Shown: piece after piece, positions 68 to 8,912 of the stretch | How the letters are laid out: each line of letters begins with the position of its first letter | How positions within the stretch are numbered: the first letter of the stretch is position 1 | From: a virus | Taxonomy: Duplodnaviria > Heunggongvirae > Uroviricota > Caudoviricetes | Virus record (IMG/VR): IMGVR_UViG_2645727555_000009 | Span: 1-9,039 of that record | Length of the DNA: 9,039 nucleotides | Reading direction: 5' to 3' (one strand) | Notes under the pieces: generated by a model | Databases searched by the model: none | What the model was told of the DNA's origin: nothing | The model's input: the letters and a program-made list of their open reading frames with translations, nothing else | Program-made: the position numbers and the translations under genes

Positions 68-223
68 TTACTCCTCAGGTTCGTAAACTGTGAAGACAGC
101 GACCTCCGTCTGGCCGGTTCGGATTCGTACCTCGCAGAGGTCTTTCCTCGTTACCAGTGCCGTCACTATGACGGTTAAACAGATGACGATCAGGGCGATT
201 AACATCGCCTTTTGCTGCTTCAT
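68..223 (-). CDS. hokD: Hok/Gef family type I membrane toxin (HokD/RelF-like), 51 aa
   Basis: Translation from the internal ATG at 223 gives MKQQKAMLIALIVICLTVIVTALVTRKDLCEVRIRTGQTEVAVFTVYEPEE: a hydrophobic transmembrane helix followed by the conserved Hok periplasmic motif (RKxLCEVRIRTGQTEVA). It matches my recollection of E. coli HokD/RelF closely. AAGGAG lies 7 nt upstream of this ATG. The provided 70-aa ORF (68..280) is an in-frame upstream extension that may be a mok-like leader frame. Paralogue assignment is from memory, not a search. Confidence 0.85.
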   Translation of the reverse strand: MKQQKAMLIALIVICLTVIVTALVTRKDLCEVRIRTGQTEVAVFTVYEPEE

Positions 224-514
224 AGCCTGCTTCTCCTTGCCTTTCGGCACGTAAGAGGCTAACCTAGATTTGCCGTTCATAGATTGAGCCTCAGATTAAT
301 GTTAAGCGTCTTGCAGGACGCGTAATGTTAACTGGGGCTTTTCTCTATCTGCCTTTTGGTATTCATGCCTGAGACAGATAGCCTCAAGCACCCGCAGCAA
401 TTCTACTTAACTATCCTTTCCCCGCAAATCGTTTTTATCCCCAGCGACAAATCGAATACACCACCAGCGCCACCGCCATTGCGATCCCTACCGTTGTGAA
501 TGCCTCAGGCCAGG

Positions 515-859
515 TCATCGTAAAACATCCTCTGCGCTTATCAGTCCGTTTCGCTTCAGGTAGTCCATCGCCTTACCCGGCAATTTACAGTCCGGCTTCG
601 TTTTCCTCAGTTGCCAGGTTAACTGCTTTACCAGCATGGTTAACTCGTCGACCAGACGCTGATGTCCCACTGGTTTGTATTCATGCAATTTACCGGCTGG
701 CTCTGCTGCCAGCGATGCCAGTGCGATTTCCAGAACAGCAATATCCATCTTATATGTGCGGATGATGTCATGGTCGATTGTGCCCGGTATGCACAGTCTC
801 TGTGCTTCAATAGTCTCCTCTGCGTGAGCTATTAACTGCTCTCTGGTAAAAGTGGTCAT
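515..859 (-). CDS. Hypothetical small phage protein (114 aa), N-terminal paralogue of the 1373..1798 product
   Basis: ORF with a GAAGGAAG Shine-Dalgarno inside the upstream gene and an ATGA start/stop overlap with the 856..1371 gene. Its N-terminus ([20 protein letters not shown]...[10 protein letters not shown]) parallels MTELTKEQLIEEAKLKIAIAK...IALTSLEAEP of the 1373..1798 product, and the DNA around 690..730 resembles 1670..1710. Confidence 0.6.
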
Positions 860-1371
860 GCCGCGCTTCCTTCTTGCTTATTAACGATTACACCGTCATA
901 TATTTCATTAAGGTGTCCCCTCAACTCCATGCGCCTTAATGCAGACAACATGTAATCGCATTCAACCTGCTTATTTCCAGTAAATGGCTTATCGTCAGGA
1001 TCACCCCAACAGCAATTACCCTTGGGCCACCCATGTACTTTCCGTACTCTTCCGTTAACAACGTGAAGTAATCCCCAGCCAGGTGGTAAATCCTCAATTG
1101 AAATAATTCCCGGCTCACTAATAAAGAATCTCCAGTCGCCCATGCCAAGAGAGGGATTTTTACGGAAACGCTTTTTTCTATCTGCCAACAAGTCAGCACG
1201 AGAACACTTCGCCTCTATCAGGCATGATGCTGAATTTCTGAATCCCATAGCATCTGGTTGTTCTCCAGTACTGGTTACAGCAACAAAGCGGTCATGAAAG
1301 CAAACCTTGAACCCGTTGCGCTTAAGGAACCTGTACGCAATCTGACAGAGTTCGCGGTGTGTTAACGCCAT
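856..1371 (-). CDS. Putative PD-(D/E)xK nuclease-fold protein (Hjc / VRR-NUC-like N-terminal domain) with a Cys-rich C-terminal region, 171 aa
   Basis: The N-terminus has the layout helix ([19 protein letters not shown]), then GEQPD, then CLIEAK 11 residues after the PD, i.e. a PD...ExK motif as in Hjc/VRR-NUC resolvase-type nucleases. The C-terminal part carries several Cys (NCCWGD, ECD). Start is coupled to the upstream gene (GGAGAATGAGATG). Fold assignment is by motif recognition only. Confidence 0.5.
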
Positions 1372-1372
1372 C

Positions 1373-1798
1373 TCATTCTCCTTTGATGCGAATGTTTACA
1401 ACCTGACAAACCTCTTTGAGTACCCAGTCAACAGCGTCTTTCCACGCTCCAGTCTCAACTGGCGGATTCTCACGTTTTACTTGTTCATAGAAGTGCACAG
1501 CTTTAACCAGTCCTTCAGGTACTACAGGCACTGGCGGCATGCGATACAATGGAGTAACACAACGCGAAGCCTCATATTTATCTGACGGACGCTGAAATAT
1601 CTCACCGAACCCATATTTTTCAATATCTCGCAGTTCCTCGTCGTCAGTCCATGCCACCGGTTCTGCTTCCAGCGATGTCAGTGCAATTTTGAGTAACTCA
1701 CCCTCTACTCGTGCCACGCCTGAATTGGGATGGCATTTCGCAATCGCTATTTTTAATTTGGCTTCTTCGATTAATTGCTCTTTTGTTAATTCAGTCAT
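1373..1798 (-). CDS. Hypothetical small phage protein (141 aa), modular: N-terminus paralogous to the 515..859 product, C-terminus (…IRIKGE) shared with the 2228..2689 product
   Basis: ORF whose stop lies 1 nt before the next start. Shares an N-terminal ~50-aa module with the 114-aa protein and a C-terminal GxW…IRIKGE tail with the 153-aa protein. Confidence 0.55.
   Translation of the reverse strand: MTELTKEQLIEEAKLKIAIAKCHPNSGVARVEGELLKIALTSLEAEPVAWTDDEELRDIEKYGFGEIFQRPSDKYEASRCVTPLYRMPPVPVVPEGLVKAVHFYEQVKRENPPVETGAWKDAVDWVLKEVCQVVNIRIKGE
1377..1394. repeat. 18-bp exact direct repeat TCTCCTTTGATGCGAATG, copy 1, at the 141-aa/171-aa gene junction
   Basis: Identical 18-mer to 2256..2273. On the coding (minus) strand it reads CATTCGCATCAAAGGAGA, encoding the C-terminal RIKGE and supplying the AAGGAG ribosome-binding site for the next gene. 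Confidence 0.9.
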
Positions 1799-1893
1799 TT
1801 TTCATTACCGCTCTTTCTGGCGGCCTCCTGATGTTCTGAGGGTGCAGAAATCCCTCCGGCTAAGGATTAAATTTTTAACAGTTCTAAATTTAA

Positions 1894-2250
1894 CTATTCA
1901 GTTCTGGATTTTGTCGCCCTGCGTATCCGCGCTTTCGCGTTACGCTCAATCTGAATTAGCTTTTCTATATTTTTCCGTCTTTCCCGTTCCTCCTGACGCA
2001 ATAGCCTTACATCATCTGCCAGTCTGGTTTCTCTTTTCGCCACAGAGAGCATCCAGTCAAATGGCTCCACAACTGCGCCGCAGATTTTACAGCGGACCTG
2101 ACGCTCTTTTTCATCAACCCGGACAGAGGCGTGATGGCAGTATGGTCTTTCCGATGGCTCATAAAGAAAATTAACCTGATTACGCGGGTCATCCTCTTTT
2201 ACAGGAAATAAAACGATATTGCTTAACTCATCCTCTGGTTTTATTTCCAT
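1894..2250 (-). CDS. Hypothetical zinc-ribbon protein with a basic coiled-coil C-terminus (118 aa)
   Basis: Strong Shine-Dalgarno AGGAGAGGAG before the ATG at 2250. Contains CHH…(x16)…CKIC, a likely Zn-binding motif, and an Arg/Lys/Glu-rich C-terminal helix. No family recognised. Confidence 0.55.
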   Translation of the reverse strand: MEIKPEDELSNIVLFPVKEDDPRNQVNFLYEPSERPYCHHASVRVDEKERQVRCKICGAVVEPFDWMLSVAKRETRLADDVRLLRQEERERRKNIEKLIQIERNAKARIRRATKSRTE

Positions 2251-2689
2251 GCTCCTCTCCTTTGATGCGAATGCCAGCGACGCGTAATGCGTGTTCTAGG
2301 TCAATCAGGTAAAGCCAACTGCCATTTTCTTTAGGTATCATGACATGTCGCTCATCTGCATTTATCGGGTGTCCATATCGAAGGTCGTAGCGAGTCGGTA
2401 ATTGAACTTCCCGCGCTTCCAGTGCAGCAATACGCTTGCTCCCATCAGAGATAACGCCTTCGTAATACTCACGCTGCTCGTTGAGTTGTGATTTTGCTTC
2501 TTCCAGTCCATCCAGCAAATCAGCGATAATATCCGCTTCCCGATGACGGATGTGACGCTTAAACGCAGCAAGAGCCGCATCACAATCCCGTTCAGCATTT
2601 GGGCTGTCCGGGATAGCCTGATACCACGCCAGCGTCGACTGATAGTTTTGTGCTGCCTCACGAAGCGCCTCATAGTTAACCTCTCTCAT
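2228..2689 (-). CDS. Hypothetical phage protein (153 aa) sharing the IRIKGE C-terminal module
   Basis: GAGGTGG Shine-Dalgarno and ATG at 2689, with an ATGA overlap onto the upstream gene's stop. Its 3' end overlaps the next gene's start by 23 nt. Confidence 0.55.
   Translation of the reverse strand: MREVNYEALREAAQNYQSTLAWYQAIPDSPNAERDCDAALAAFKRHIRHREADIIADLLDGLEEAKSQLNEQREYYEGVISDGSKRIAALEAREVQLPTRYDLRYGHPINADERHVMIPKENGSWLYLIDLEHALRVAGIRIKGEEHGNKTRG
2256..2273. repeat. 18-bp exact direct repeat TCTCCTTTGATGCGAATG, copy 2, at the 153-aa/118-aa gene junction
   Basis: Exact match to 1377..1394; flanking DNA is not conserved. Confidence 0.9.
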
Positions 2690-2982
2690 TGAGCCACCTC
2701 CTGATAAATCACCGCATGCCCCAGTTTCTCCGCCAGTGCCAGCTCTGCCTTAGCGCCCGCTGACCGCTGCCAGCCATTCAGCATGTAAATCGCATCCACA
2801 CAACGAATCATTGCCATGCAAATATCCATGTAGTGCGGCTGTGTCAGCCCGTCCGGAAGTACTGCCGGGTTTAAGACGGTATGCCCTTCCCGTTTCAGTT
2901 CCTCTTCCGCCTTGTGAAACGCCTCACGGTTGAAATTTTCATATCCCGTCATTGGACCGGCAATATAAACTCTCACCCTCAC
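2686..2982 (-). CDS. DUF4406-like protein (nucleoside 2-deoxyribosyltransferase-like fold), about 98 aa
   Basis: Proposed GTG start at 2982, with AGGAGG 8 nt upstream and overlapping the upstream stop. The N-terminal motif VRVYIAGPMTGYENFN…VLNP is what I recall for DUF4406/NDT-like proteins. The provided ORF (to 3051) is probably over-extended at the 5' end. Confidence 0.55.
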   Translation of the reverse strand: MRVRVYIAGPMTGYENFNREAFHKAEEELKREGHTVLNPAVLPDGLTQPHYMDICMAMIRCVDAIYMLNGWQRSAGAKAELALAEKLGHAVIYQEVAQ

Positions 2983-3371
2983 TCCATCACCTCCTGAAAG
3001 TTTCCCCGATAGAACGCCAGCACACGCTGCATAACCTCGCTCTGGCGGCACTCACGACAAATTATGTTCTGCCATCTGTTGTAACGACGTATTTCTCCGT
3101 CAGGTAACTTTCGAATCAGTGTCGGGTCAGCAGCCTTCTCCGGTGTCTTACGCCATACGCGATACGCCTGCTCTGATGGAAATACCCCGCAATCAGAGAG
3201 CCAGACATCACCACAGGCCGCAAGCGCACCAGATAAACGACGAATAGCGGTCTTACTGACACCCGTTTTATCTGCCAGTTGTCGAAAAGTTTCTCGTCCG
3301 CTCAGGCGCACGAATTCCACAATGCGCGCCTTCACTTCTTCCCGCTCTTCCTGTGTAAATACTCTTGCCAT
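2979..3371 (-). CDS. Hypothetical helix-turn-helix protein (about 130 aa)
   Basis: ATG at 3371 preceded by GGAGGT; the longer ORF to 3386 begins with TTG and is less likely. HTH-like segment RETFRQLADKTGVSKTAIRRLSGAL, plus a CxxC near the C-terminus (ICRECRQ). Confidence 0.55.
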   Translation of the reverse strand: MARVFTQEEREEVKARIVEFVRLSGRETFRQLADKTGVSKTAIRRLSGALAACGDVWLSDCGVFPSEQAYRVWRKTPEKAADPTLIRKLPDGEIRRYNRWQNIICRECRQSEVMQRVLAFYRGNFQEVME

Positions 3372-3386
3372 AAGTACCTCCGGCAA

Positions 3387-4157
3387 TCACTTTTCCGACA
3401 CAATACGACTGGAGGAATCGACAATCTGTCGAACAATATCCTGGTGCTTGTTCAGCTCACGCAGCGCAGCACAGACTCGCTCCCACTTCTGAACCTGACC
3501 TTTTGCCCGGCGCAGTTCGCGGTTAGCCACATGCAGCGATGGTAAAATCAGACTATCCGGATGCTTTCTGGTGAACGACGGCTGTGACTGCACTGTGACC
3601 GCCACACTTTCAGTTTTAATTTCTTCCTGTGTTTCCGCTTCCCGGACTGGTAACGCAACACCTGCTGGCTGAGGAAAGGCTTTACCATCGGTTTCCGTTA
3701 CCGATGCAGCTTCCGGCTCTGCCGGTAAATCAGCGCCCGGTATGCAGTAACGAAATTTACCGTTCTGATTTACGCGTGCCAGGCGCCCCGTTGCTGTTAC
3801 GACCGCCAACGTGGAAGCAACCTTGCGAATGCTAACACCGAACTTATCCGCCACTTCCTCACACGTTTTAGCCCCATCCTGACAGATAAACTCAATCATC
3901 ATGTCCGCGGTAACTTTTTGTTCGACCTCCCCGGTCAGCACATCCGGTACTTCAGACTGTGCTGGCTGCTCTTCGGTTACCCCGGATTCACCTTCACCAG
4001 CCAGAAACCAGGTGTGACCCGTTTTATCAACAACGCCATTTTTTTTGAGTTCCCACAGTTCGTTGAGAACTTCTTCACGGCTGATATCAAGCCGCGCCGC
4101 CAGTTCAACAGAATTGGCTTTACCCATCGCTTTCAGTGCATGCAATACGGTTTCCAT
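3387..4157 (-). CDS. Hypothetical phage protein with two winged-helix-like modules separated by acidic linkers (256 aa)
   Basis: GGAGGAAG Shine-Dalgarno before the ATG at 4157. Residues 1-45 ([37 protein letters not shown]) and about 85-135 ([33 protein letters not shown]) both resemble wHTH DNA-binding modules, separated by E/Q/T-rich low-complexity linkers. Confidence 0.6.
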
Positions 4158-4186
4158 TAAAACTTCCTCCGGATAAAAATTACTTC

Positions 4187-4927
4187 TCAGTTCCTGTGCT
4201 GGCTGACGTTCGGACGCCAGCTCTCCCAGTTAAACGTCACCCAGCGACCACCGTTCATGACCATGCGGTCCATCACACGCTCGCCAAGAAGCGTACTCAT
4301 CGCTACGTGGTTCAGGTTCGTCAGCATTCCGACACTACGCATCGAAGCCGTTCTGCGGTCGACTATCTGGTTCAGTGTGACCTGCTCGTTGCGCGTATCC
4401 CGCTGCATTCCGATTTCATCCAGGACAAGCAGGTCAACATCACACAACCCCTGTAAAAATTTTTCGCCTGAGTTTTTGTTGTCGTAGCTGTTGTGTAACG
4501 CCAGCATCACATCAGCCACCGTTATCACAATCACGCTGCGACCTTTCGCCAGAAGATGATTGCCAATGGCGGCTGCAAGGTGGTTCTTTCCGGTACCCGG
4601 CTTACCGCTGAACACAAAATTCGTGCACCCTGTCATCAGTTCGTCAGCGATGGATTTTGCCTGGCTCAGCGCATGTTTTTGCCCGTCGTTCTGCACCTGA
4701 TAATTCGCAAACGAGCATTTGCTGTGCAGAGGCTGGATGCCCGAACGATTCAGGATTTTTTCCACCCGCAACTGGCGATTCTGGCGGTTGATCTCCTCGC
4801 TACGTTTTCGCCCTTCTGCCAGTTGCCACTCGCGCCACTCGTCCACTGTCCGGTACGGCGCGATTACATGCTGCGGGGTCAGCTTACGGATACGCTCAAG
4901 AACACCACCTGTCGCGATATTTTTCAT
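4187..4927 (-). CDS. DnaC-like AAA+ helicase loader (phage P-protein functional analogue; YdaV/IstB-like ATPase)
   Basis: Walker [16 protein letters not shown] and Walker [10 protein letters not shown], 246 aa, AGGGGGTAA Shine-Dalgarno, lying immediately downstream of the initiator gene. Confidence 0.85.
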
Positions 4928-4933
4928 GGCCCG

Positions 4934-5899
4934 TTACCCCCTGAACCCCGGCGGAATTTCGGTATCCGGCTCAGAAATATGATTCACGCAACGCTGTACA
5001 GACGAACGCCCCAGGCGGATAACCAGTTCATCCCATTTTTCGCGAAGCTTTGACGGACTCATGATATTTTTTACCCAGAATGGATCCCGCTGCGCCCGAC
5101 CAAACATTTCACAAATTTGTCTGTGAGTTCTGCCATCCAGCATCCGCATTGTGCGCACGTCGTTGGCCCATGCGGTCCAGTTGGGTTCTTTCGGTCGCGA
5201 AATCTCGCCATCATCGCTGGCGGCCTGCTCGTAAAGACTCACGATTCGTCCCCAGATCCACTGCGCACACGCCAAATCTTCCTGGTTGCCCCACTGGCGT
5301 TTTTTTGCACTGAACACAACCGCGTCAGGGTGTCGGGTTAAAAAATCCTGTTCAACCGTCTGCGGGTCCGGTTGCGAAGCTTCCGGACGAGAAGTGTTTT
5401 TATTCTCTGTAGTAATCTCTGTTGTATTCTCTGTAAGATCATCAGGCCATTTTGACCCGATGACATTGAGTCGTTTTGAACCAATGGAACGTGCCATTTT
5501 GGCCCCTTCCATCGTGTCATTCTGACCTGATGGAGCAGCGCATTTTGACCTGATGGATTCGCTCACTTTGCCACCATTTAAAAGCTCGCTCTCGTAATTA
5601 ATCGTGTAAAAATTAGTCATATCACGCTTTGATTTATTGAGCTTTTCGCAACGCAAAAGCCCCAGCGTTTTCAGACTTGCAAATGCGCGTTTTAACGTTG
5701 ACTCTGACCAGAACGGGAACTGCTCCAGCCATTGTTCTGTTGTGTTATAAATCCAGCGAACACCATCACATTCCATGCCGGAACCGGTATCTCTCAACCA
5801 GTAATGCAACTGCTGCAACACGATGGCTTCGTTCAGACCAATTTTCATCGCCAGCTGCGTGTTTATAACCAGCGGACGTTCAGCAAAAAGGAGCTTCAT
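4934..5899 (-). CDS. Phage replication initiation protein (lambda O-like / YdaU-like), with the origin iterons inside the coding sequence
   Basis: Long ORF upstream of the DnaC-like gene. ATG at 5899 (MKLLFAERP…); the provided ORF extends to a TTG at 5923 that overlaps the ydaT stop. Five iterons lie inside the coding sequence, encoding the repeated IGSK peptide. The C-terminus is the type typically fused to helicase-loader-recruiting initiators. Confidence 0.75.
   Translation of the reverse strand: MKLLFAERPLVINTQLAMKIGLNEAIVLQQLHYWLRDTGSGMECDGVRWIYNTTEQWLEQFPFWSESTLKRAFASLKTLGLLRCEKLNKSKRDMTNFYTINYESELLNGGKVSESIRSKCAAPSGQNDTMEGAKMARSIGSKRLNVIGSKWPDDLTENTTEITTENKNTSRPEASQPDPQTVEQDFLTRHPDAVVFSAKKRQWGNQEDLACAQWIWGRIVSLYEQAASDDGEISRPKEPNWTAWANDVRTMRMLDGRTHRQICEMFGRAQRDPFWVKNIMSPSKLREKWDELVIRLGRSSVQRCVNHISEPDTEIPPGFRG
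5448..5558. repeat. Putative phage replication origin: five iterons (consensus CATTTTGACCTGATGGA) with about 23-bp periodicity, followed by a moderately AT-rich segment (5560..5640)
   Basis: Iteron starts at 5448, 5472, 5495, 5518 and 5541 (spacing 24/23/23/23). The two best copies are CATTCTGACCTGATGGA (5518..5534) and CATTTTGACCTGATGGA (5541..5557). The layout matches a lambda-type origin embedded in the O gene. Confidence 0.7.
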
Positions 5900-5908
5900 C
5901 CCCCCCCC
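5900..5908. repeat. Homopolymeric tract (C9 on plus, G9 on the coding strand) directly abutting the initiator ATG
   Basis: Nine consecutive C at 5900..5908. On the minus strand this is GGGGGGGGG immediately 5' of the ATG at 5899, or inside the coding sequence if the TTG at 5923 is the start. Confidence 0.9.
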
Positions 5909-5919
5909 AGAACACGTTA

Positions 5920-6345
5920 TCAATGCGCCACCACGGCATTTCCCGCCGGACCACCACGATTCATCTGATCGAACAACACGATCGCTGCCGCAACAAACTC
6001 ATCGATATCTTTCACCAGGCGCTCCCGTCGCTCGACAAGCTCCCGGTGATATTCCGAACTGTGGCTGCGCATTCGGGCCACCAGTGGAGGCGGCATTGCT
6101 TTTTCGATCGCCGGTAACAACGCCTGAATTTTTTTAACCGCATCAGGGGTGTCTTTTTCTACCCAGCGGAAAATTTTCTGGGTATTACGAGACAGGGCTT
6201 CCGGATGGCTGTCGTCATACAGTTCAGGAAACGTCATACCCAACTCAAAATAAGCCTGGGTTATTCCAGCTACTGGAACTTTTTCGCCATCAGGACGCGC
6301 CCAGGCATTCATTGCCATGCGGATGTGTTCATGCTTGATTTTCAT
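5920..6345 (-). CDS. ydaT: YdaT-like protein (proposed cII functional analogue of Rac/CP-933P-type prophages), 141 aa
   Basis: Sits second in the rightward operon, directly after the Cro-like gene and before the replication genes. Its size and N-terminus (MKIKHEHIRMAMNAW…) fit my recollection of the YdaT family. Family assignment is from memory. Confidence 0.55.
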   Translation of the reverse strand: MKIKHEHIRMAMNAWARPDGEKVPVAGITQAYFELGMTFPELYDDSHPEALSRNTQKIFRWVEKDTPDAVKKIQALLPAIEKAMPPPLVARMRSHSSEYHRELVERRERLVKDIDEFVAAAIVLFDQMNRGGPAGNAVVAH

Positions 6346-6604
6346 GAATCACCCCCGCCTCTGGTTGTGTGTTAGCCTGATACTCGACAGGTAAGCCGTC
6401 GGTTGGGTTGGGATAAGTACTGCCATCAATCTCGTGCGGAGTTACTATCCAGCCTGTTGCTTCGCACCAGCGTAAAATTTTTTTCCCCGTAAGTTTCGCC
6501 CGTCCGGTAATGACATGGCTTACCATCCCTTGGGTTACCCCAACAATTTCAGCAAAATGCTTCTGAGTTATACCGGAATGATGCAAATATTCTCCAAGAT
6601 TCAT
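6329..6604 (-). CDS. ydaS: Cro-like HTH regulator (YdaS/DicC-type), 91 aa
   Basis: First gene of the rightward operon, divergent from the repressor gene. HTH segment ITQKHFAEIVGVTQGMVSHV; GAGGTGA Shine-Dalgarno 5 nt before the ATG at 6604. Confidence 0.65.
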   Translation of the reverse strand: MNLGEYLHHSGITQKHFAEIVGVTQGMVSHVITGRAKLTGKKILRWCEATGWIVTPHEIDGSTYPNPTDGLPVEYQANTQPEAGVIHENQA

Positions 6605-6615
6605 TGTTCACCTCA

Positions 6616-6628
6616 TGTGATGTCATCA
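6616..6628. promoter_or_regulatory. 13-bp perfect palindrome GTGATG-T-CATCAC in the ydaS leader / transcription start region
   Basis: Perfect dyad symmetry about 12 bp upstream of the ydaS start codon. A candidate operator, possibly for Cro-like or YdaT autoregulation, or a leader hairpin. Confidence 0.4.
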
Positions 6629-6634
6629 CGATCA

Positions 6635-6676
6635 TTAATAGCATTGTTATTTTTAAAAGTAAATAGCATCACTATT
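6635..6676. promoter_or_regulatory. Operator pair (OR-like) in the divergent promoter region: two 17-bp sites of type AATAG-N5-CTATT, centres 25 bp apart
   Basis: Site 1 TAATAGCATTGTTATTT (6635..6651) and site 2 AAATAGCATCACTATTT (6660..6676). Both are internally palindromic and match a third copy at 7759..7775. They overlap candidate minus-strand promoter hexamers: TTGAAA / TTTAAA and TTTACT / TATTAA. Confidence 0.6.
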
Positions 6677-6711
6677 TCAAAGAGATTAATAATCTTATTA
6701 GAATTGAAGGT

Positions 6712-7212
6712 ATGAAAAGAAAATCCCTGTCAGAGATCGACCTGCAAGCCGCCCAGAGACTGAAAGAAATCTGGACGGCGAAAAAAAATCAACTAGGGTT
6801 AACCCAAGAGCGTGCGGCAGAAATTCTGGGATTTTCGACACAGGGAGCTGTAAGCCATTATCTAAATGGTCAGACACCTTTAAATCTTGAGGCTGTTATC
6901 AAGTTCGCAGGGTTGCTGCAAGTTCCTCCCGAGTCAATCAGACCAGATATGGCCGAGTTGTTACAAATTGTAAGGATGTATCCCCAAGAATCTGGGGAGG
7001 ACAATGTTGTCACTATATCTGCAGATATGGAACAATCGGAAAACGAACTTCCGTTTAATATAGACCCCATGGAGCGGGATTTGCTCCAGACGTTCAGGGC
7101 TTTCCCCAAAGAAGATAAAGAGAAAATGCTTAAGGAAATGAAGGAGAAAAAAGAATCAATTGAAGAAATCGTTGCGCGATGGCTAGCTGCGCAAAAGGGT
7201 CGTCGCGCCTAA
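6712..7212 (+). CDS. paaR2: Prophage repressor at the cI position (PaaR2-like HTH_XRE regulator), 166 aa, lacking a LexA/S24 autocleavage domain
   Basis: N-terminal HTH (LGLTQERAAEILGFSTQGAVSHYLNG), divergent from the Cro-like gene. The C-terminus is E/K-rich with no Ser-Lys peptidase motif. It is followed by an antitoxin/toxin pair, as in the O157:H7 paaR2-paaA2-parE2 locus. The gene symbol is a recollection-based assignment. Confidence 0.6.
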   Translation: MKRKSLSEIDLQAAQRLKEIWTAKKNQLGLTQERAAEILGFSTQGAVSHYLNGQTPLNLEAVIKFAGLLQVPPESIRPDMAELLQIVRMYPQESGEDNVVTISADMEQSENELPFNIDPMERDLLQTFRAFPKEDKEKMLKEMKEKKESIEEIVARWLAAQKGRRA

Positions 7213-7229
7213 TCTGAGGAGGTAAAAAC

Positions 7230-7421
7230 ATGAGTACAGCCCTTTCCCCGATAATTTCTGAATTTGAAACAGTCGAACAAGAAAACAGCTATAACGAATG
7301 GTTGCGAACCAAAGTGGCAGCAAGCCTCTCAGATCCCCGTCCTGCAATTCCACATGACGAAGTAATGGCTGAAATGGAAAACCTTATTGCTCAATTAGCT
7401 GCAACGAACAGGAGTGAGTAA
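7230..7421 (+). CDS. paaA2: Small antitoxin of a ParE-type toxin-antitoxin module (PaaA2-like), 63 aa
   Basis: Strong GAGGAGG Shine-Dalgarno; 63 aa, acidic; its stop overlaps the toxin start (TAATG). Size, position and sequence (…SEFETVEQENSYNEWLR…PRPAIPHDEV…) fit my recollection of PaaA2. Confidence 0.6.
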   Translation: MSTALSPIISEFETVEQENSYNEWLRTKVAASLSDPRPAIPHDEVMAEMENLIAQLAATNRSE

Positions 7422-7711
7422 TGCTGCCCATTTTATGGCTACCTTCTGCACGTGATGATTTACGTCAGATCGTAGCCTATATTGCTAAGGAAAACCCTCC
7501 CGCTGCACGTAGACTAAAAATACGCATTGAAACATCAGTTTTGTCACTTACTGAACACCCTTATCTGTACCCACCGAGCGAAAGAGTTCCAAGTCTTCGT
7601 GAGATAGTGACTCATCCTAACTACATAATACTTTACCGAGTAACAGCATCTAACATCGAGATCGTAAATGTAGTTCACTCACGAAGACAGTATCCAAACA
7701 AAACCTGTTAA
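7421..7711 (+). CDS. parE2: ParE/RelE-superfamily toxin (ParE2-like), 96 aa
   Basis: Translationally coupled to the upstream antitoxin by a 1-nt overlap. The sequence has the ParE-family pattern (…LRQIVAYIAKENPPAARRL…YRVTASNIEIVNVVHSRR). Confidence 0.7.
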   Translation: MLPILWLPSARDDLRQIVAYIAKENPPAARRLKIRIETSVLSLTEHPYLYPPSERVPSLREIVTHPNYIILYRVTASNIEIVNVVHSRRQYPNKTC

Positions 7712-7725
7712 TCCTTCCTGTCAAC

Positions 7726-7748
7726 AACCACCTTCGGGTGGTTTTTTT
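7726..7748 (+). terminator. Rho-independent terminator after parE2
   Basis: Stem AACCACC / GGTGGTT with a TTCG loop, followed by a T7 run (7742..7748), 15 nt after the parE2 stop. Confidence 0.75.
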
Positions 7749-7758
7749 CTTGCCACGA

Positions 7759-7801
7759 TAATAGCACTACTATTTACATAATTAAATAGTAGTGGTATTG
7801 T
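7759..7801 (+). promoter_or_regulatory. Operator pair (OL-like) overlapping a candidate pL-like promoter for the ydfA-ydfB-ydfC-dicF operon
   Basis: Site 3 TAATAGCACTACTATTT (7759..7775) and site 4 AAATAGTAGTGGTATTG (7784..7800), centres 25 bp apart as in the OR pair. Candidate -35 TTTACA (7773..7778), 17-bp spacer, -10 TATTGT (7796..7801). Together the sites form a 30-bp palindrome (7765..7794). Confidence 0.55.
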
Positions 7802-7980
7802 TCATTCATCAACCCACCCCGCCCCACAGAACGCCAGGCAATACTTCGAGTTACCCGGCAGTGGTCAGGGGTTAAGTAGCCAGCCCGAGGCGTAAGAACA
7901 TGACGGCAGGGTTCAACTTTAATAACTATGCAGCAGTTTTTTGTTCCGCTACCCCGGCGTTAAGGGGAAATGAGGTCAGC

Positions 7981-8136
7981 ATGGATACTATCGATCTTGG
8001 CAACAACGAATCTCTGGTGTACGGCGTATTTCCAAACCAGGACGGCACGTTCACCGCAATGACGTATACCAAAAGCAAAACGTTTAAAACCGAAAATGGT
8101 GCCCGTCGCTGGCTGGAAAGAAACTCAGGTGAGTGA
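7981..8136 (+). CDS. ydfA: YdfA-like small protein (51 aa), first gene of a dicB-type operon
   Basis: ATG at 7981 with a GAGG Shine-Dalgarno. The 51-aa product (MDTIDLGNNESLVYGVFPNQDGTF…) matches the size and context of Qin-prophage YdfA. The longer ORF from 7900 is probably an artefactual extension. Confidence 0.65.
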   Translation: MDTIDLGNNESLVYGVFPNQDGTFTAMTYTKSKTFKTENGARRWLERNSGE

Positions 8137-8137
8137 T

Positions 8138-8266
8138 ATGGATTTCGACACAATCATGGAAAAGGCTTACGAAGAATACTTCGAAGGCCTTGCCGAAGGC
8201 GAAGAAGCTCTCAGCTTCAGTGAGTTTAAACAGGCGCTTTCCAGTTCGGCAAAATCTAACGGCTGA
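8138..8266 (+). CDS. ydfB: YdfB-like small protein (42 aa)
   Basis: ATG at 8138, 2 nt after the ydfA stop, with an AGGTGA Shine-Dalgarno. Encodes MDFDTIMEKAYEEYFEGLAEGEEALSFSEFKQALSSSAKSNG. It is not in the provided ORF track because it is too short; the size matches YdfB. Confidence 0.55.
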   Translation: MDFDTIMEKAYEEYFEGLAEGEEALSFSEFKQALSSSAKSNG

Positions 8267-8295: not shown

Positions 8296-8514
8296 ATGCA
8301 GAAACGAGAACCCGTCATCATCGCGCCAGACTATACCGATGATGAACTTTATGAGTGGATGCGCCAGAAAATTAATGCAGCGCAGGATCTGAAATGGGCT
8401 AATGAAGCCAGGGCTAAGCAGGCTGAAAATCTGTCCGCTCTGGAGCAGGATATCACCAGGCTGGAAAAAGCAGCGGCATTAAGCATTGCCAGAATGATTA
8501 CATACCCGCGTTAA
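8296..8514 (+). CDS. ydfC: YdfC-like protein (72 aa)
   Basis: GAGGA Shine-Dalgarno and ATG at 8296; 72 aa with a coiled-coil-like C-terminus. Position matches ydfC of the dicB operon. Confidence 0.6.
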   Translation: MQKREPVIIAPDYTDDELYEWMRQKINAAQDLKWANEARAKQAENLSALEQDITRLEKAAALSIARMITYPR

Positions 8515-8854: not shown

Positions 8855-8912
8855 TTTCTGGTGACGTTTGGCGGTATCAGTTTTACTCCGTGGCTGCTCT
8901 GCCGCCCTTTTT
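8855..8912 (+). ncRNA. dicF: DicF small RNA (prophage-encoded inhibitor of ftsZ translation) with its intrinsic terminator
   Basis: TTTCTGGTGACGTTTGGCGGTATCAGTTTTACTCCGTGGCTGCTCTGCCGCCCTTTTT matches my recollection of E. coli DicF with about one substitution. A GGCGG…CCGCC terminator stem is followed by a T5 run. It lies downstream of ydfC as in the Qin dicB operon. Confidence 0.8.

Follow-up and report, generated by a model that had tools for sequence, protein, structure and literature searches.

A probable heteroimmune allele of paaR-paaA-parE in the immunity region of a lambda-like Escherichia coli prophage

In phage lambda, the slot between the repressor gene and OL/PL is occupied by rexAB. 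In the window analyzed here, i.e., the whole stretch of 9,039 nucleotides, the same slot between repressor and OL/PL holds a toxin-antitoxin pair of the paaA-parE type, and the rex-like location recognized in the original prediction is thus confirmed. This raises the question of what the three-gene unit represents and whether the pair serves superinfection exclusion or prophage stabilization, the two roles proposed earlier. According to the present analysis, the region in question is the immunity region of an E. coli prophage of the lambda-like Qin/Rac/CP-933P type, and positions 6712-7750 probably constitute its leftward, "lysogenic" operon, namely a heteroimmune allele of paaR-paaA-parE.

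Operon layout and gene products

The unit comprises three co-oriented open reading frames and a terminator:

6712..7212, plus strand: immunity repressor, 166 aa; cI-type N-domain, linker and PaaR/DicA-type C-domain
7230..7421, plus strand: paaA-type antitoxin, 63 aa, pI 4.4 (Pfam PaaA2, PDB 3zbe)
7421..7711, plus strand: parE-type toxin, 96 aa, pI 9.7 (Pfam ParE_toxin, PDB 5cw7_B)
7726..7750, plus strand: intrinsic terminator closing the repressor-paaA-parE operon; stem, UUCG loop, T run

In E. coli O104:H4 2009EL-2071, whose DNA is 99.9% identical, the same three coding sequences are annotated by PGAP (NCBI). Several features expected of a paaR-paaA-parE locus are present, including a co-oriented HTH regulator gene (HTH_3) ending 17 nt upstream of paaA and a lambda-like immunity region with divergent ydaS-ydaT and common OR/OL operators. 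The 17-nt gap contains a GAGGAGG ribosome-binding site. The antitoxin stop codon (TAA, 7419-7421) and the toxin start codon (ATG, 7421-7423) overlap by 1 nt, and this TAATG junction suggests translational coupling of the toxin to paaA. The sole strong terminator of the unit is placed after parE. It consists of a stem of 7 bp capped by a UUCG loop (7726-7743), with seven T behind it, has a predicted free energy of -10.4 kcal/mol (z -2.1), and its hairpin also occurs in loci L001 and L014. By homology, co-transcription of repressor, paaA and parE is predicted.

For the comparison with relatives, the genuine CP-933P locus of O157:H7 is represented by L005; its PaaR2 starts with MQKKE, and both PaaA2 and ParE2 agree with the PDB chains at 100% identity. 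The second O157:H7 paralogue (L002) was equated with CP-933M paaR1-paaA1-parE1 by elimination, no sequence labelled paaR1 standing behind this name. The antitoxin belongs to Pfam family PaaA2 (PF21217; E 1e-21; 77 bits, cut-off 27) without a second domain and matches PaaA2 in PDB 3zbe with an E-value of 2e-22. It shares 70% identity with PaaA2 and 84% with the second paralogue and is acidic, with 11 acidic and 4 basic residues and a predicted pI of 4.4. Like PaaA, it lacks a DNA-binding domain and is encoded directly upstream of parE; in addition, it matches NCBIfam NF050103, named "RelB family antitoxin" by NCBI. The toxin is basic (predicted pI 9.7), falls into Pfam ParE_toxin (E 6.6e-18, 65.5 bits against a cut-off of 23) and aligns over its full length with the ParE2 chain 5cw7_B (E 5e-36; phmmer, PDB), the identities amounting to 65% with ParE2 (over 92 aa) and 88% with the second paralogue. 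Judged by sequence comparison, both family assignments are far above chance level. The acidic 63-aa antitoxin, the ParE-family toxin overlapping it by 1 nt and the closing intrinsic terminator described in the original prediction were thus all recovered by profile and sequence searches. By analogy with the homologues, toxicity of ParE and its neutralization by PaaA may be expected for the present allele as well.

The repressor is built from an N-terminal domain (residues ~1-92), a disordered linker (93-113) and a helical C-terminal domain (~115-166). Its AlphaFold2 model reaches pLDDT values of 85-94 at residues 11-80 and of 80-90 at residues 121-160, with two helices made by the C-terminal 50 residues. 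The N-terminal domain matches that of lambda cI with an E-value of 1e-9 (phmmer, PDB), and the top Foldseek match of the model is likewise the lambda cI N-terminal domain (3kz3_A; TM 0.93, rmsd 1.0 A), so that a lambda-type five-helix DNA-binding domain is found by both methods. Besides HTH_3/HTH_31 at residues 26-75, the Pfam scan of the repressor returned no domain and in particular no Peptidase_S24 (PF00717); an S24 peptidase C-domain with Ser-Lys dyad and cleavage site is absent. This bears out the claim that a repressor in the cI position lacks the autocleavage domain. Full-length relatives with the same N-domain are CI of Stx2 phage F039 (239 aa) and P0031, the latter with PF00717. No record of the full-length repressor was present in the INPHARED phage collection, in which the N-terminal domain alone found matches (≤52%).

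The C-terminal part has other relatives. The C-domain is 65% identical to that of the UPEC locus L003 (over 52 aa) and 55% identical to that of PaaR2 from CP-933P (over 44 aa), and the C-region is 47% identical to that of the O157:H7 locus L002 in an 87-aa alignment. It also matches positions 75-130 of the NCBIfam DicA model with an E-value of 1.5e-7, although the score of 31 bits stays well short of the cut-off of 101. BLAST found 27% identity to K-12 DicA over 51 aa (E 2e-5), and the motif L-x3-F-x2-(F/L)-P is common to the C-domain and DicA. Homology to PaaR1 and PaaR2 does not extend over the whole length, as only residues ~115-123 to 166 align. Accordingly, the proposed likeness to paaR2-paaA2-parE2 was sustained for the gene order and the toxin-antitoxin pair (70%/65%) but not for the repressor as a whole, which is similar only in its last 45-50 residues. 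On the level of sequence, the repressor is a chimera of a lambda-cI-type DNA-binding domain and a C-domain common to PaaR1, PaaR2 and probably DicA. Since the PaaR-type C-domain is also found in loci without paaA-parE, including those of tandem-HTH repressors, its presence does not indicate that repressor and toxin-antitoxin pair are functionally coupled.

Control regions, divergent genes and induction

The genes and control elements flanking the operon are the following:

5920..6345, minus strand: ydaT-like gene, 141 aa, CII analogue (Pfam YdaT_toxin, E 3e-10)
6329..6604, minus strand: ydaS-like gene, 91 aa HTH protein, Cro analogue (Pfam HTH_3, E 9e-6)
6335..6352: probable operator OM for YdaT, TTGATTTTCATGAATCAC, extending across the ydaS stop and the ydaT start
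6635..6704: OR-like control region with operators 6637-6651 and 6662-6676
-35 6663-6658, -10 6640-6635, minus strand: putative PR-like promoter, hexamers read by eye
-35 TTCAAA 6676-6681, -10 TAGAAT 6699-6704, plus strand: PRM-like promoter
6687-6700: candidate weak third OR site, palindrome TAATAATCTTATTA, read from the sequence by eye
7759..7801, plus strand: OL/PL-like region with operators 7760-7774 and 7785-7799 and an overlapping promoter
-35 TTTACA 7773-7778, -10 TATTGT 7796-7801, plus strand: PL-like promoter reading into ydfA-ydfB-ydfC-dicF

Repeats do exist at the two flagged places, 6635-6676 and 7759-7800. They are 15-bp AATAG-N5-CTATT operators at 6637, 6662, 7760 and 7785, and although seven matches with at most two mismatches occur in the window against 3.2 expected, 0-1 mismatch is confined to these four. 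Binding of the repressor to the OR and OL sites is predicted. The centres of the OR sites, the candidate third one included, lie near -68, -43 and -18 relative to the repressor ATG at 6712, an arrangement resembling that of lambda OR1, OR2 and OR3. The OL/PL region and the PR region align in register, including operators and -35, and the OL patch differs in loci of another immunity type and is common with L014, which has the immunity type of the window. For CP-933P, a promoter PL933P with OL1-3 has been published (PMC8630535). The last base of the PRM-like -10 hexamer lies 8 nt upstream of the A in the repressor ATG, and the repressor mRNA is probably leaderless, as was demonstrated experimentally for paaR2 in CP-933P (PMC8630535). 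Downstream of PL, the conserved leader 7810-7970 folds no better than shuffled sequence (z -0.13) and matches no Rfam family at E <0.1; because of both results, it is not claimed as an RNA element.

On the divergent side, the ydaT product is 86% identical to YdaT of CP-933P, published as a PRE activator (PMC8630535), and 89% identical to the second O157 copy. The candidate OM matches 17/18 bases of the published 5'-TTGATTN6AATCAA-3' site, and CP-933P features a perfect YdaT site at the equivalent position (L005 2203-2220). Since chance alone would give one match of this quality per window, the argument for OM relies on its position. The ydaS product combines an immunity-type-specific N-terminal HTH part with a C-terminal tail common with other types. 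It shares 42% identity with YdaS of the second O157 copy and 27% with that of CP-933P, and the nucleotide similarity of ydaS to both loci ends at 6419. A reading of YdaS-YdaT as a second toxin-antitoxin pair, suggested by the Pfam name "YdaT_toxin", was ruled out by their published function as Cro and CII analogues (PMC8630535).

The induction of a non-cleavable repressor, noted as puzzling in the original prediction, is a genuine problem common to PaaR2, which was reported to be unresponsive to mitomycin C (PMC8630535). As the repressor is unable to cleave itself, induction must proceed via the Cro-like switch or via an antirepressor encoded beyond the window. No antirepressor gene is located within the window; it could sit elsewhere in the prophage. 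Moreover, LexA boxes (CTGT-N8-ACAG) gave three one-mismatch matches in the window against 2.7 expected, none of them near a promoter, and there is no sign of SOS control within the window.

Distribution, mosaicism and proposed function

The part of the locus specific to this immunity type can be delimited by comparison:

6420..7081: immunity-specific segment comprising the ydaS N-part, the operators and promoters at OR, and residues 1-123 of the repressor

This segment shows no nucleotide similarity to L002, L003, L004 and L005, whereas both flanks align at 71-85%. Among 5426 complete E. coli genomes, 72 carry it, at least 71 of them together with the toxin-antitoxin pair. The whole module is covered to at least 80% in 70 of the 72 genomes; of the remaining two, one was inspected and has the pair, too. 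In 41 genomes, the identity of the module is 99% or more, and about 30 others have a diverged version (80-95%). As a whole, the window is a mosaic, since no complete genome matches it end to end (best match with 91% coverage and 96% identity). Pathogenic lineages carry the allele, O104:H4 genomes among them, and there its current annotation is generic (HTH protein, RelB antitoxin, RelE/ParE toxin), and a full-text literature search on the RefSeq accessions of the three proteins found no mention of them.

The most likely role of the pair is that of an addiction module stabilizing the immunity region, and this reading draws on the CP-933P homologue, for which prophage stabilization is the one of the two earlier proposals with experimental support. 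In CP-933P, footprints on OR were obtained with PaaR2 and YdaS, both of which repress PR, PRM and PL; the locus is bistable and stabilizes an unstable mini-F plasmid, and ClpAP and ClpXP degrade PaaA2 (PMC8630535). Neither transcriptional state showed ParE2 activity, with transcripts of the pair occurring in both (PMC8630535). By analogy, the present repressor would bind OR and OL as an oligomer, shut off PR and PL and autoregulate the PRM-like promoter, with a transcript that would begin at the ATG of the repressor or directly beside it. YdaS would compete for the sites of the repressor and thereby create a bistable switch, and YdaT would switch on a PRE-like promoter via the site at 6335-6352. 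Unstable PaaA would neutralize the nucleoid-directed, SOS-inducing ParE by direct binding. Because of this instability, cells losing the operon by deletion or by recombinational replacement of the immunity region would keep ParE and be killed or arrested, and paaA-parE would thereby serve the immunity region or the prophage as an addiction module. As the repressor's DNA-binding domain is not homologous to that of PaaR2, the order of site occupation, PRM activation and octamer formation may differ.

Many toxin-antitoxin systems function in phage defence. It is conceivable, yet quite unlikely, that paaA-parE mainly mediates abortive infection or superinfection exclusion as a stand-in for RexAB. 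Attack by a second phage would then deplete PaaA, which is unstable, or inactivate it, and the ParE set free would abort the infection. The exact rex position within an operon expressed in the lysogen would suit such a function, as would the other accessory cargo that relatives carry behind the repressor, which is HigB-HigA in a locus from Salmonella and consists of unknown genes in other cases. Nevertheless, no PADLOC model matches the repressor, antitoxin or toxin (a scan that also covered YdaS and YdaT yielded a weak HTH noise match for YdaS only), so that homology lends no support to a defence system. Furthermore, literature searches did not turn up a publication with an exclusion phenotype for paaA-parE, and the only phenotype measured for the CP-933P homologue is post-segregational killing (PMC8630535).

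It is very improbable that the genes form a self-contained tripartite toxin-antitoxin system in which the HTH protein is a dedicated regulator of the pair ("split antitoxin") and not an immunity repressor. This corresponds to the original description of paaR-paaA-parE from 2010 (Hallez 2010) as recounted in a review (PMC4803016), and it is in line with the occurrence of the pair alongside this immunity type in at least 71 of the 72 genomes. Still, the same operators occur at a second, PL-like promoter of ydfABC-dicF beyond the toxin-antitoxin operon, the repressor gene diverges from a Cro-like gene that is followed by a CII-like one, its N-domain is that of lambda cI, and its C-domain is common to tandem-HTH repressors of loci without the pair and probably to DicA. 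For PaaR2, a 2021 study likewise arrived at an immunity repressor (Jurenas 2021, PMC8630535). The possibility of an inactive remnant without present function appears extremely remote, even though prophages of the CP-933P type are cryptic (PMC8630535) and the window is a mosaic. It is opposed by three intact reading frames of full length relative to the solved homologues, by intact ribosome-binding sites, TAATG junction, terminator and operators, and by the presence of the module at the identities given above.

With the addiction module as the preferred reading, the architecture of the repressors deserves attention. At least three non-homologous DNA-binding domains (lambda-cI type, PaaR1 type and PaaR2 type) are joined to the block of C-domain, paaA and parE, and strain 99-3311 carries a 64%-identical variant of the PaaR1 type. 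Each type brings its own OR/OL operators and its own Cro-like N-terminal part, and the conserved block has its left junction at 7082, within the repressor gene. Repressors with two HTH domains in tandem (P0013-P0022) resemble intermediates of such domain swaps. A farther-reaching explanation, regarded as unlikely, is that the C-domain, paaA and parE form a fixed addictive core around which lambda-like prophages swap immunity specificities. If true, the pair would be more than the stabilizer of a single prophage, and if it selects recombinants that keep it or kills heteroimmune-superinfected cells, it would steer the evolution of immunity.

The kind of module is published, as the original prediction had supposed (PMC9986795; PMC8630535), and the locus is largely ordinary overall; what is new is the heteroimmune allele. 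It shows that paaA-parE as cargo is not tied to the DNA-binding domains of PaaR1 and PaaR2, being combined here with one of the lambda-cI type. The resulting natural heteroimmune series, with a constant toxin-antitoxin core and varying operator specificities, could be used to probe the published idea that the pair guards the immunity region against recombinational replacement. Besides, correct naming of the allele improves the annotation in pathogenic lineages. Its importance is modest, and no new biological question arises beyond those posed for CP-933P.

Comparison with known systems

The paaR2-paaA2-parE2 locus of CP-933P/Sp12 (O157:H7), in which paaA2-parE2 replaces rexAB and PaaR2 replaces CI (PMC9986795; PMC8630535), resembles the present locus in gene order, orientation and the divergent ydaS-ydaT genes. 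Further common features are the OM position, the terminator followed by OL/PL, the use of the rexAB-equivalent slot, the ydfA/dicB side following the three genes and a repressor without an S24 peptidase domain. In contrast, the repressor comprises 166 aa here and 123 aa in CP-933P, its lambda-cI-like N-domain is not homologous to that of PaaR2, the operators are of the AATAG-N5-CTATT type instead of GTTTAGTAA-type repeats, and the intergenic region measures 107 bp instead of 97 bp. The closest toxin-antitoxin relatives are found in the second O157:H7 paralogue L002 (PaaA 84%, ParE 88%, YdaT 89%), which shows 81% nucleotide similarity to the window from 7082 onward and has a near-identical homologue in the UPEC locus L003. 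Nevertheless, the repressor N-domain, ydaS N-part and OR/OL operators of L002 (AAACTGT..ACAGTTT type) are unrelated to those described here.

Lambda cI-rexA-rexB provides the second point of reference. The N-domain of lambda cI is homologous to that of the present repressor (~37% identical, TM 0.93) and likewise has a basic N-terminal arm, and its residues E34 and D38 align with the acidic patch E33, E37. In both operons, the repressor gene comes first behind a PRM-like promoter and is probably leaderless, accessory genes lie between repressor and OL/PL, and sites repeat every ~25 bp. Lambda differs by the S24 autocleavage domain and the RexAB cargo, whereas a type II toxin-antitoxin pair and no such domain are found here; YdaS and YdaT show no sequence relationship to Cro and CII of lambda. 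With RexAB-type exclusion systems, the pair has the genomic position alone in common, its products showing no RexA/RexB homology and falling into the PaaA2 and ParE Pfam families.

As a short, non-cleavable HTH repressor, the present protein resembles DicA (Qin, K-12), RacR and Gifsy GfoR/GtgR, a class for which control by antirepressors instead of self-cleavage was proposed (PMC3121763). The DicA locus of Qin is followed by the same ydfA-ydfB-ydfC-dicF operon, but there ydfA is located directly after dicA without a toxin-antitoxin pair, and the N-domain of DicA is a different HTH. Finally, canonical parDE systems (RK2, Vibrio cholerae parDE2) likewise combine a ParE-fold toxin with a small, acidic, wrapping antitoxin. 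Unlike canonical ParD, which autoregulates by its ribbon-helix-helix DNA-binding domain, the PaaA protein described here matches PaaA2 and NF050103 only and carries no such domain, regulation being assigned to a separate repressor.

Repressor, operators and reading frames of the module

The three reading frames of the immunity region, the one-base overlap of the last two and the terminator all lie where the original prediction had placed them (ORF list, sequence reading and RNA folding). The signals around them are listed together with the genes.

Genes and signals of the immunity region
6335-6352: putative YdaT operator, TTGATTN6AATCAA with one mismatch
6637 and 6662: 15-bp quasi-palindromes AATAG-N5-CTATT, intergenic region between ydaS and the repressor gene
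6676-6704: PRM-like promoter, TTCAAA-17-TAGAAT, 8 nt from its end to the A of the repressor ATG
6712-7212, plus strand: repressor, 166 aa
7230-7421, plus strand: antitoxin, 63 aa
7421-7711, plus strand: toxin, 96 aa
7726-7750, plus strand: terminator, 7-bp G+C-rich stem, UUCG loop, seven T
7760 and 7785: 15-bp quasi-palindromes AATAG-N5-CTATT, just beyond the terminator
Past the terminator, reading rightwards in the window: PL-like promoter, -35 TTTACA, -10 TATTGT, TG upstream

The 17-nt gap between repressor and antitoxin genes carries a GAGGAGG ribosome-binding site (sequence reading), antitoxin stop and toxin ATG share one base in a TAATG junction, and the terminator hairpin folds with -10.4 kcal/mol (z -2.1). 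The 63-aa protein belongs to Pfam PaaA2 (PF21217, E 1e-21) and matches the solved structure of PaaA2 (3zbe, E 2e-22) over its full length. Likewise, the 96-aa protein is assigned to Pfam ParE_toxin (E 6.6e-18) and matches ParE2 (5cw7_B, E 5e-36) over its full length. With predicted pI values of 4.4 and 9.7, respectively, these matches bear out the acidic antitoxin and ParE-family toxin that had been proposed.

The presumed non-cleavable HTH repressor in the cI position also stands, as Pfam detects HTH_3 as the sole domain of the 166-aa protein and no S24 peptidase domain. Residues 1 to about 90 match the N-terminal domain of lambda cI (E 1e-9). In an AlphaFold2 model computed from 25 homologues, a five-helix N-terminal domain (pLDDT 85-94, 10-residue block means, residues 11-80) is joined by a disordered linker (residues 93-113) to a C-terminal part with a short (119-129) and a long helix (133-165). 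Its best fold matches in the PDB are all lambda cI N-terminal domains (top 3kz3_A, TM 0.93, rmsd 1.0 A). The C-terminal motif is also found in DicA of Qin: positions 75-130 of the NCBIfam DicA model match the repressor (E 1.5e-7, with a score well under the family cut-off), and BLAST aligns it to K-12 DicA at 27% identity (E 2e-5). Because its N-terminus matches lambda cI while its C-terminus matches PaaR repressors and DicA, the repressor is a chimera of a lambda-cI-type DNA-binding domain and a PaaR/DicA-type C-terminal domain. Nucleotide similarity to four loci of other immunity types stops at 6419 (inside ydaS) and restarts at 7082 (inside the repressor gene), which delimits an immunity-specific segment of 662 bp comprising the HTH part of ydaS, operators, promoters and repressor residues 1-123.

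The PL-like region can be aligned in register with the PR-like region of the minus strand; it is wholly different in loci with PaaR1-type repressors and common to the window and L014, a locus of the same immunity type. The region past the terminator is the equivalent of OL/PL, which have been published for CP-933P (PMC8630535). The YdaT site straddles the ydaS stop and the ydaT start exactly as in CP-933P, and its consensus is the published YdaT operator. Clear operators are centred at about -68 and -43 from the putative leaderless start, and a third candidate, a perfect 14-bp palindrome at 6687-6700 read by eye, at about -18. Taking the positions of lambda OR1, OR2 and OR3 as reference, this geometry resembles lambda OR. 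The lambda cI mRNA is leaderless, and the spacing of the PRM-like promoter fits a leaderless repressor mRNA. For paaR2, a leaderless mRNA was demonstrated experimentally (PMC8630535). Repressor residues E33 and E37 align with E34 and D38 of lambda cI. These lambda residues contact sigma, which makes activation of PRM by the repressor plausible.

Two further sequences were observed. Between the PR-like -10 and the ribosome-binding site of ydaS, the leader of this gene contains a perfect 13-bp palindrome (6617-6629, GTGATGTCATCAC) that bears no relation to the AATAG-N5-CTATT operators; it may be bound by some other regulator or have arisen by chance. Within the repressor gene, a promoter-like sequence (7007-7036, plus strand, TTGTCA-18-AACAAT, TG upstream, 9/12 matches) is weak, the scan having returned 4 such sites with 3 expected. 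If active, it could drive paaA-parE separately from PRM, which would fit the published transcription of the CP-933P pair in both switch states (PMC8630535).

The slot behind the repressor

The gene order is ydaT - ydaS - OR - repressor - paaA - parE - terminator - OL/PL - ydfA/B/C - DicF. Thus, the pair occupies the position of lambda rexAB, as originally predicted and as described for CP-933P (PMC9986795). A function as a Rex-like exclusion system finds no support, since PADLOC gives no match and literature searches revealed no published phenotype. An inactive remnant is unlikely in view of the intact reading frames and signals and the wide conservation of the module. Copies of the 1.2-kb module with at least 99% identity occur in 41 complete E. 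coli genomes, among them O104:H4 strains, and the identical repressor protein occurs in at least 1000 contigs. The immunity-specific segment was found in 72 of 5426 genomes, 70 of which carry the whole module (at least 80% coverage); inspection of one of the two copies that have diverged most revealed paaA-parE there as well.

A self-contained tripartite toxin-antitoxin system is contradicted by the operators also present at OL/PL, by the lambda-cI domain of the repressor and by loci that lack the pair. A C-terminal domain of the PaaR type is found, too, in repressors of 244-255 aa with two tandem HTH domains, in whose loci no toxin-antitoxin pair was found. In a Salmonella enterica diarizonae locus (L011) and a Logan contig (L012), region 4001-5339, the slot behind a repressor relative of 154 aa holds the HigB toxin and an antitoxin with an HTH (HigA). 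This relative is 50% identical to the window repressor and has a different short helical C-terminal domain. The post-repressor position therefore seems to be a recurrent, general site for toxin-antitoxin cargo, and the repressor is not simply a 'split antitoxin'.

Tandem-HTH repressors of 240-255 aa (P0013-P0022) are encoded, e.g., on three Logan contigs (L008-L010, gene 4001-4768). They combine a domain 63-75% identical to the lambda-cI-like N-terminus of the window repressor with an entire PaaR1-like protein (HTH and C-terminal domain) behind it, and may be fusion intermediates in immunity-domain exchange. In the three P0019 loci examined, paaA-parE is absent and ydaS/ydaT-like neighbours are present.

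Further features of the window

Other genes and RNAs
68-280, minus strand: Hok, Pfam HOK_GEF, E 6e-22
218-393: sok antisense RNA, Rfam RF01794, 112 bits (gathering score 59)
515-859, 856-1371 and 1373-1798, minus strand: several reading frames without Pfam family
2228-2689, minus strand: Ead/Ea22-like
2686-3051, minus strand: DUF4406
2979-3386, minus strand: DUF977
3387-4157, minus strand: DUF1627
4187-4927, minus strand: DnaC/IstB-like ATPase
4934-5923, minus strand: O-like replication gene
About 7984-8136: ydfA-like (DUF1391), upstream of DicF
8096-8266: ydfB-like, upstream of DicF
8296-8514: ydfC-like, upstream of DicF
8856-8907, plus strand: DicF small RNA, Rfam RF00039, 75 bits (gathering score 48)

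A complete hok/sok type I locus (68-393, minus strand) accompanies paaA-parE, so that the 9-kb window holds two unrelated addiction-type modules. The ydfA/B/C-like reading frames and DicF thus form a PL-side operon of the Qin 'dic' type (compare the K-12 locus L007). The ydfA leader that follows the PL-like promoter (7810-7970, plus strand) is 97.5% identical to CP-933P (L005), whereas the adjoining toxin and antitoxin proteins are just 65-70% identical to those of L005. This leader is near-invariant among loci of differing immunity types and yielded neither a significant RNA fold (z -0.13) nor an Rfam match. The rightward early operon behind ydaT (515-5923, minus strand) is mosaic. Among complete E. 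coli genomes, no end-to-end match of the window was found, the best reaching 91% coverage at 96% identity.

Proposed function and comparison with CP-933P

The mechanism described for CP-933P (PMC8630535), carried over by homology, is the best-supported reading; what the DNA of the window allele shows is the homology, the anatomy and the shared operators. At OR and OL, the repressor would compete with the Cro-like YdaS in a bistable switch, with YdaT activating a PRE-like promoter. PaaA would directly neutralize a nucleoid-associated, SOS-inducing ParE and would itself be degraded by ClpAP and ClpXP, so that loss of the locus would release ParE and, by post-segregational killing, stabilize the immunity region. 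Binding, toxicity, co-transcription and addiction phenotype of the window allele are, by this analogy, inferred. The authors detected ParE2 activity in neither CP-933P switch state (PMC8630535). Any physiological role proposed for the pair is tentative family-wide. With regard to induction, the window repressor cannot self-cleave; PaaR2, likewise without a peptidase motif, is reported not to respond to mitomycin C (PMC8630535). For short repressors of the DicA/RacR/Gifsy class, control by LexA-regulated antirepressors was proposed (PMC3121763). Within the 9-kb window, neither a LexA box above chance nor an antirepressor gene was found.

L005 is the genuine CP-933P locus, as its antitoxin and toxin match the PDB chains of PaaA2 and ParE2 at 100% identity, and its regulator, beginning MQKKE, and its 97-bp intergenic region agree with PMC8630535. 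A second copy in the same O157:H7 genomes (L002) is, by elimination, the CP-933M paralogue paaR1-paaA1-parE1.

Identity of window proteins to L005 and L002
PaaA: 70% and 84%
ParE: 65% and 88%
YdaT: 86% and 89%
Repressor: 55% (C-terminal 44 aa) and 47% (87-aa alignment)

The last 52 residues of the repressor are 65% identical to L003, a near-identical UPEC homologue of L002. The N-terminal domains of the L005, L002 and L003 repressors are unrelated to that of the window repressor. By these identities, the window pair is nearer to paralogue 1, the less-studied one. Since, in a review's account of work from 2010, PaaA1 does not neutralize ParE2, nor PaaA2 ParE1, the pair probably belongs to a 'type 1' specificity group. 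The proposed likeness to paaR2-paaA2-parE2 and the guess that such a module had already been described thus essentially hold, with the repressor alike only in its last 44 aa; what is new is limited to a heteroimmune allele with a chimeric repressor and its own operators.
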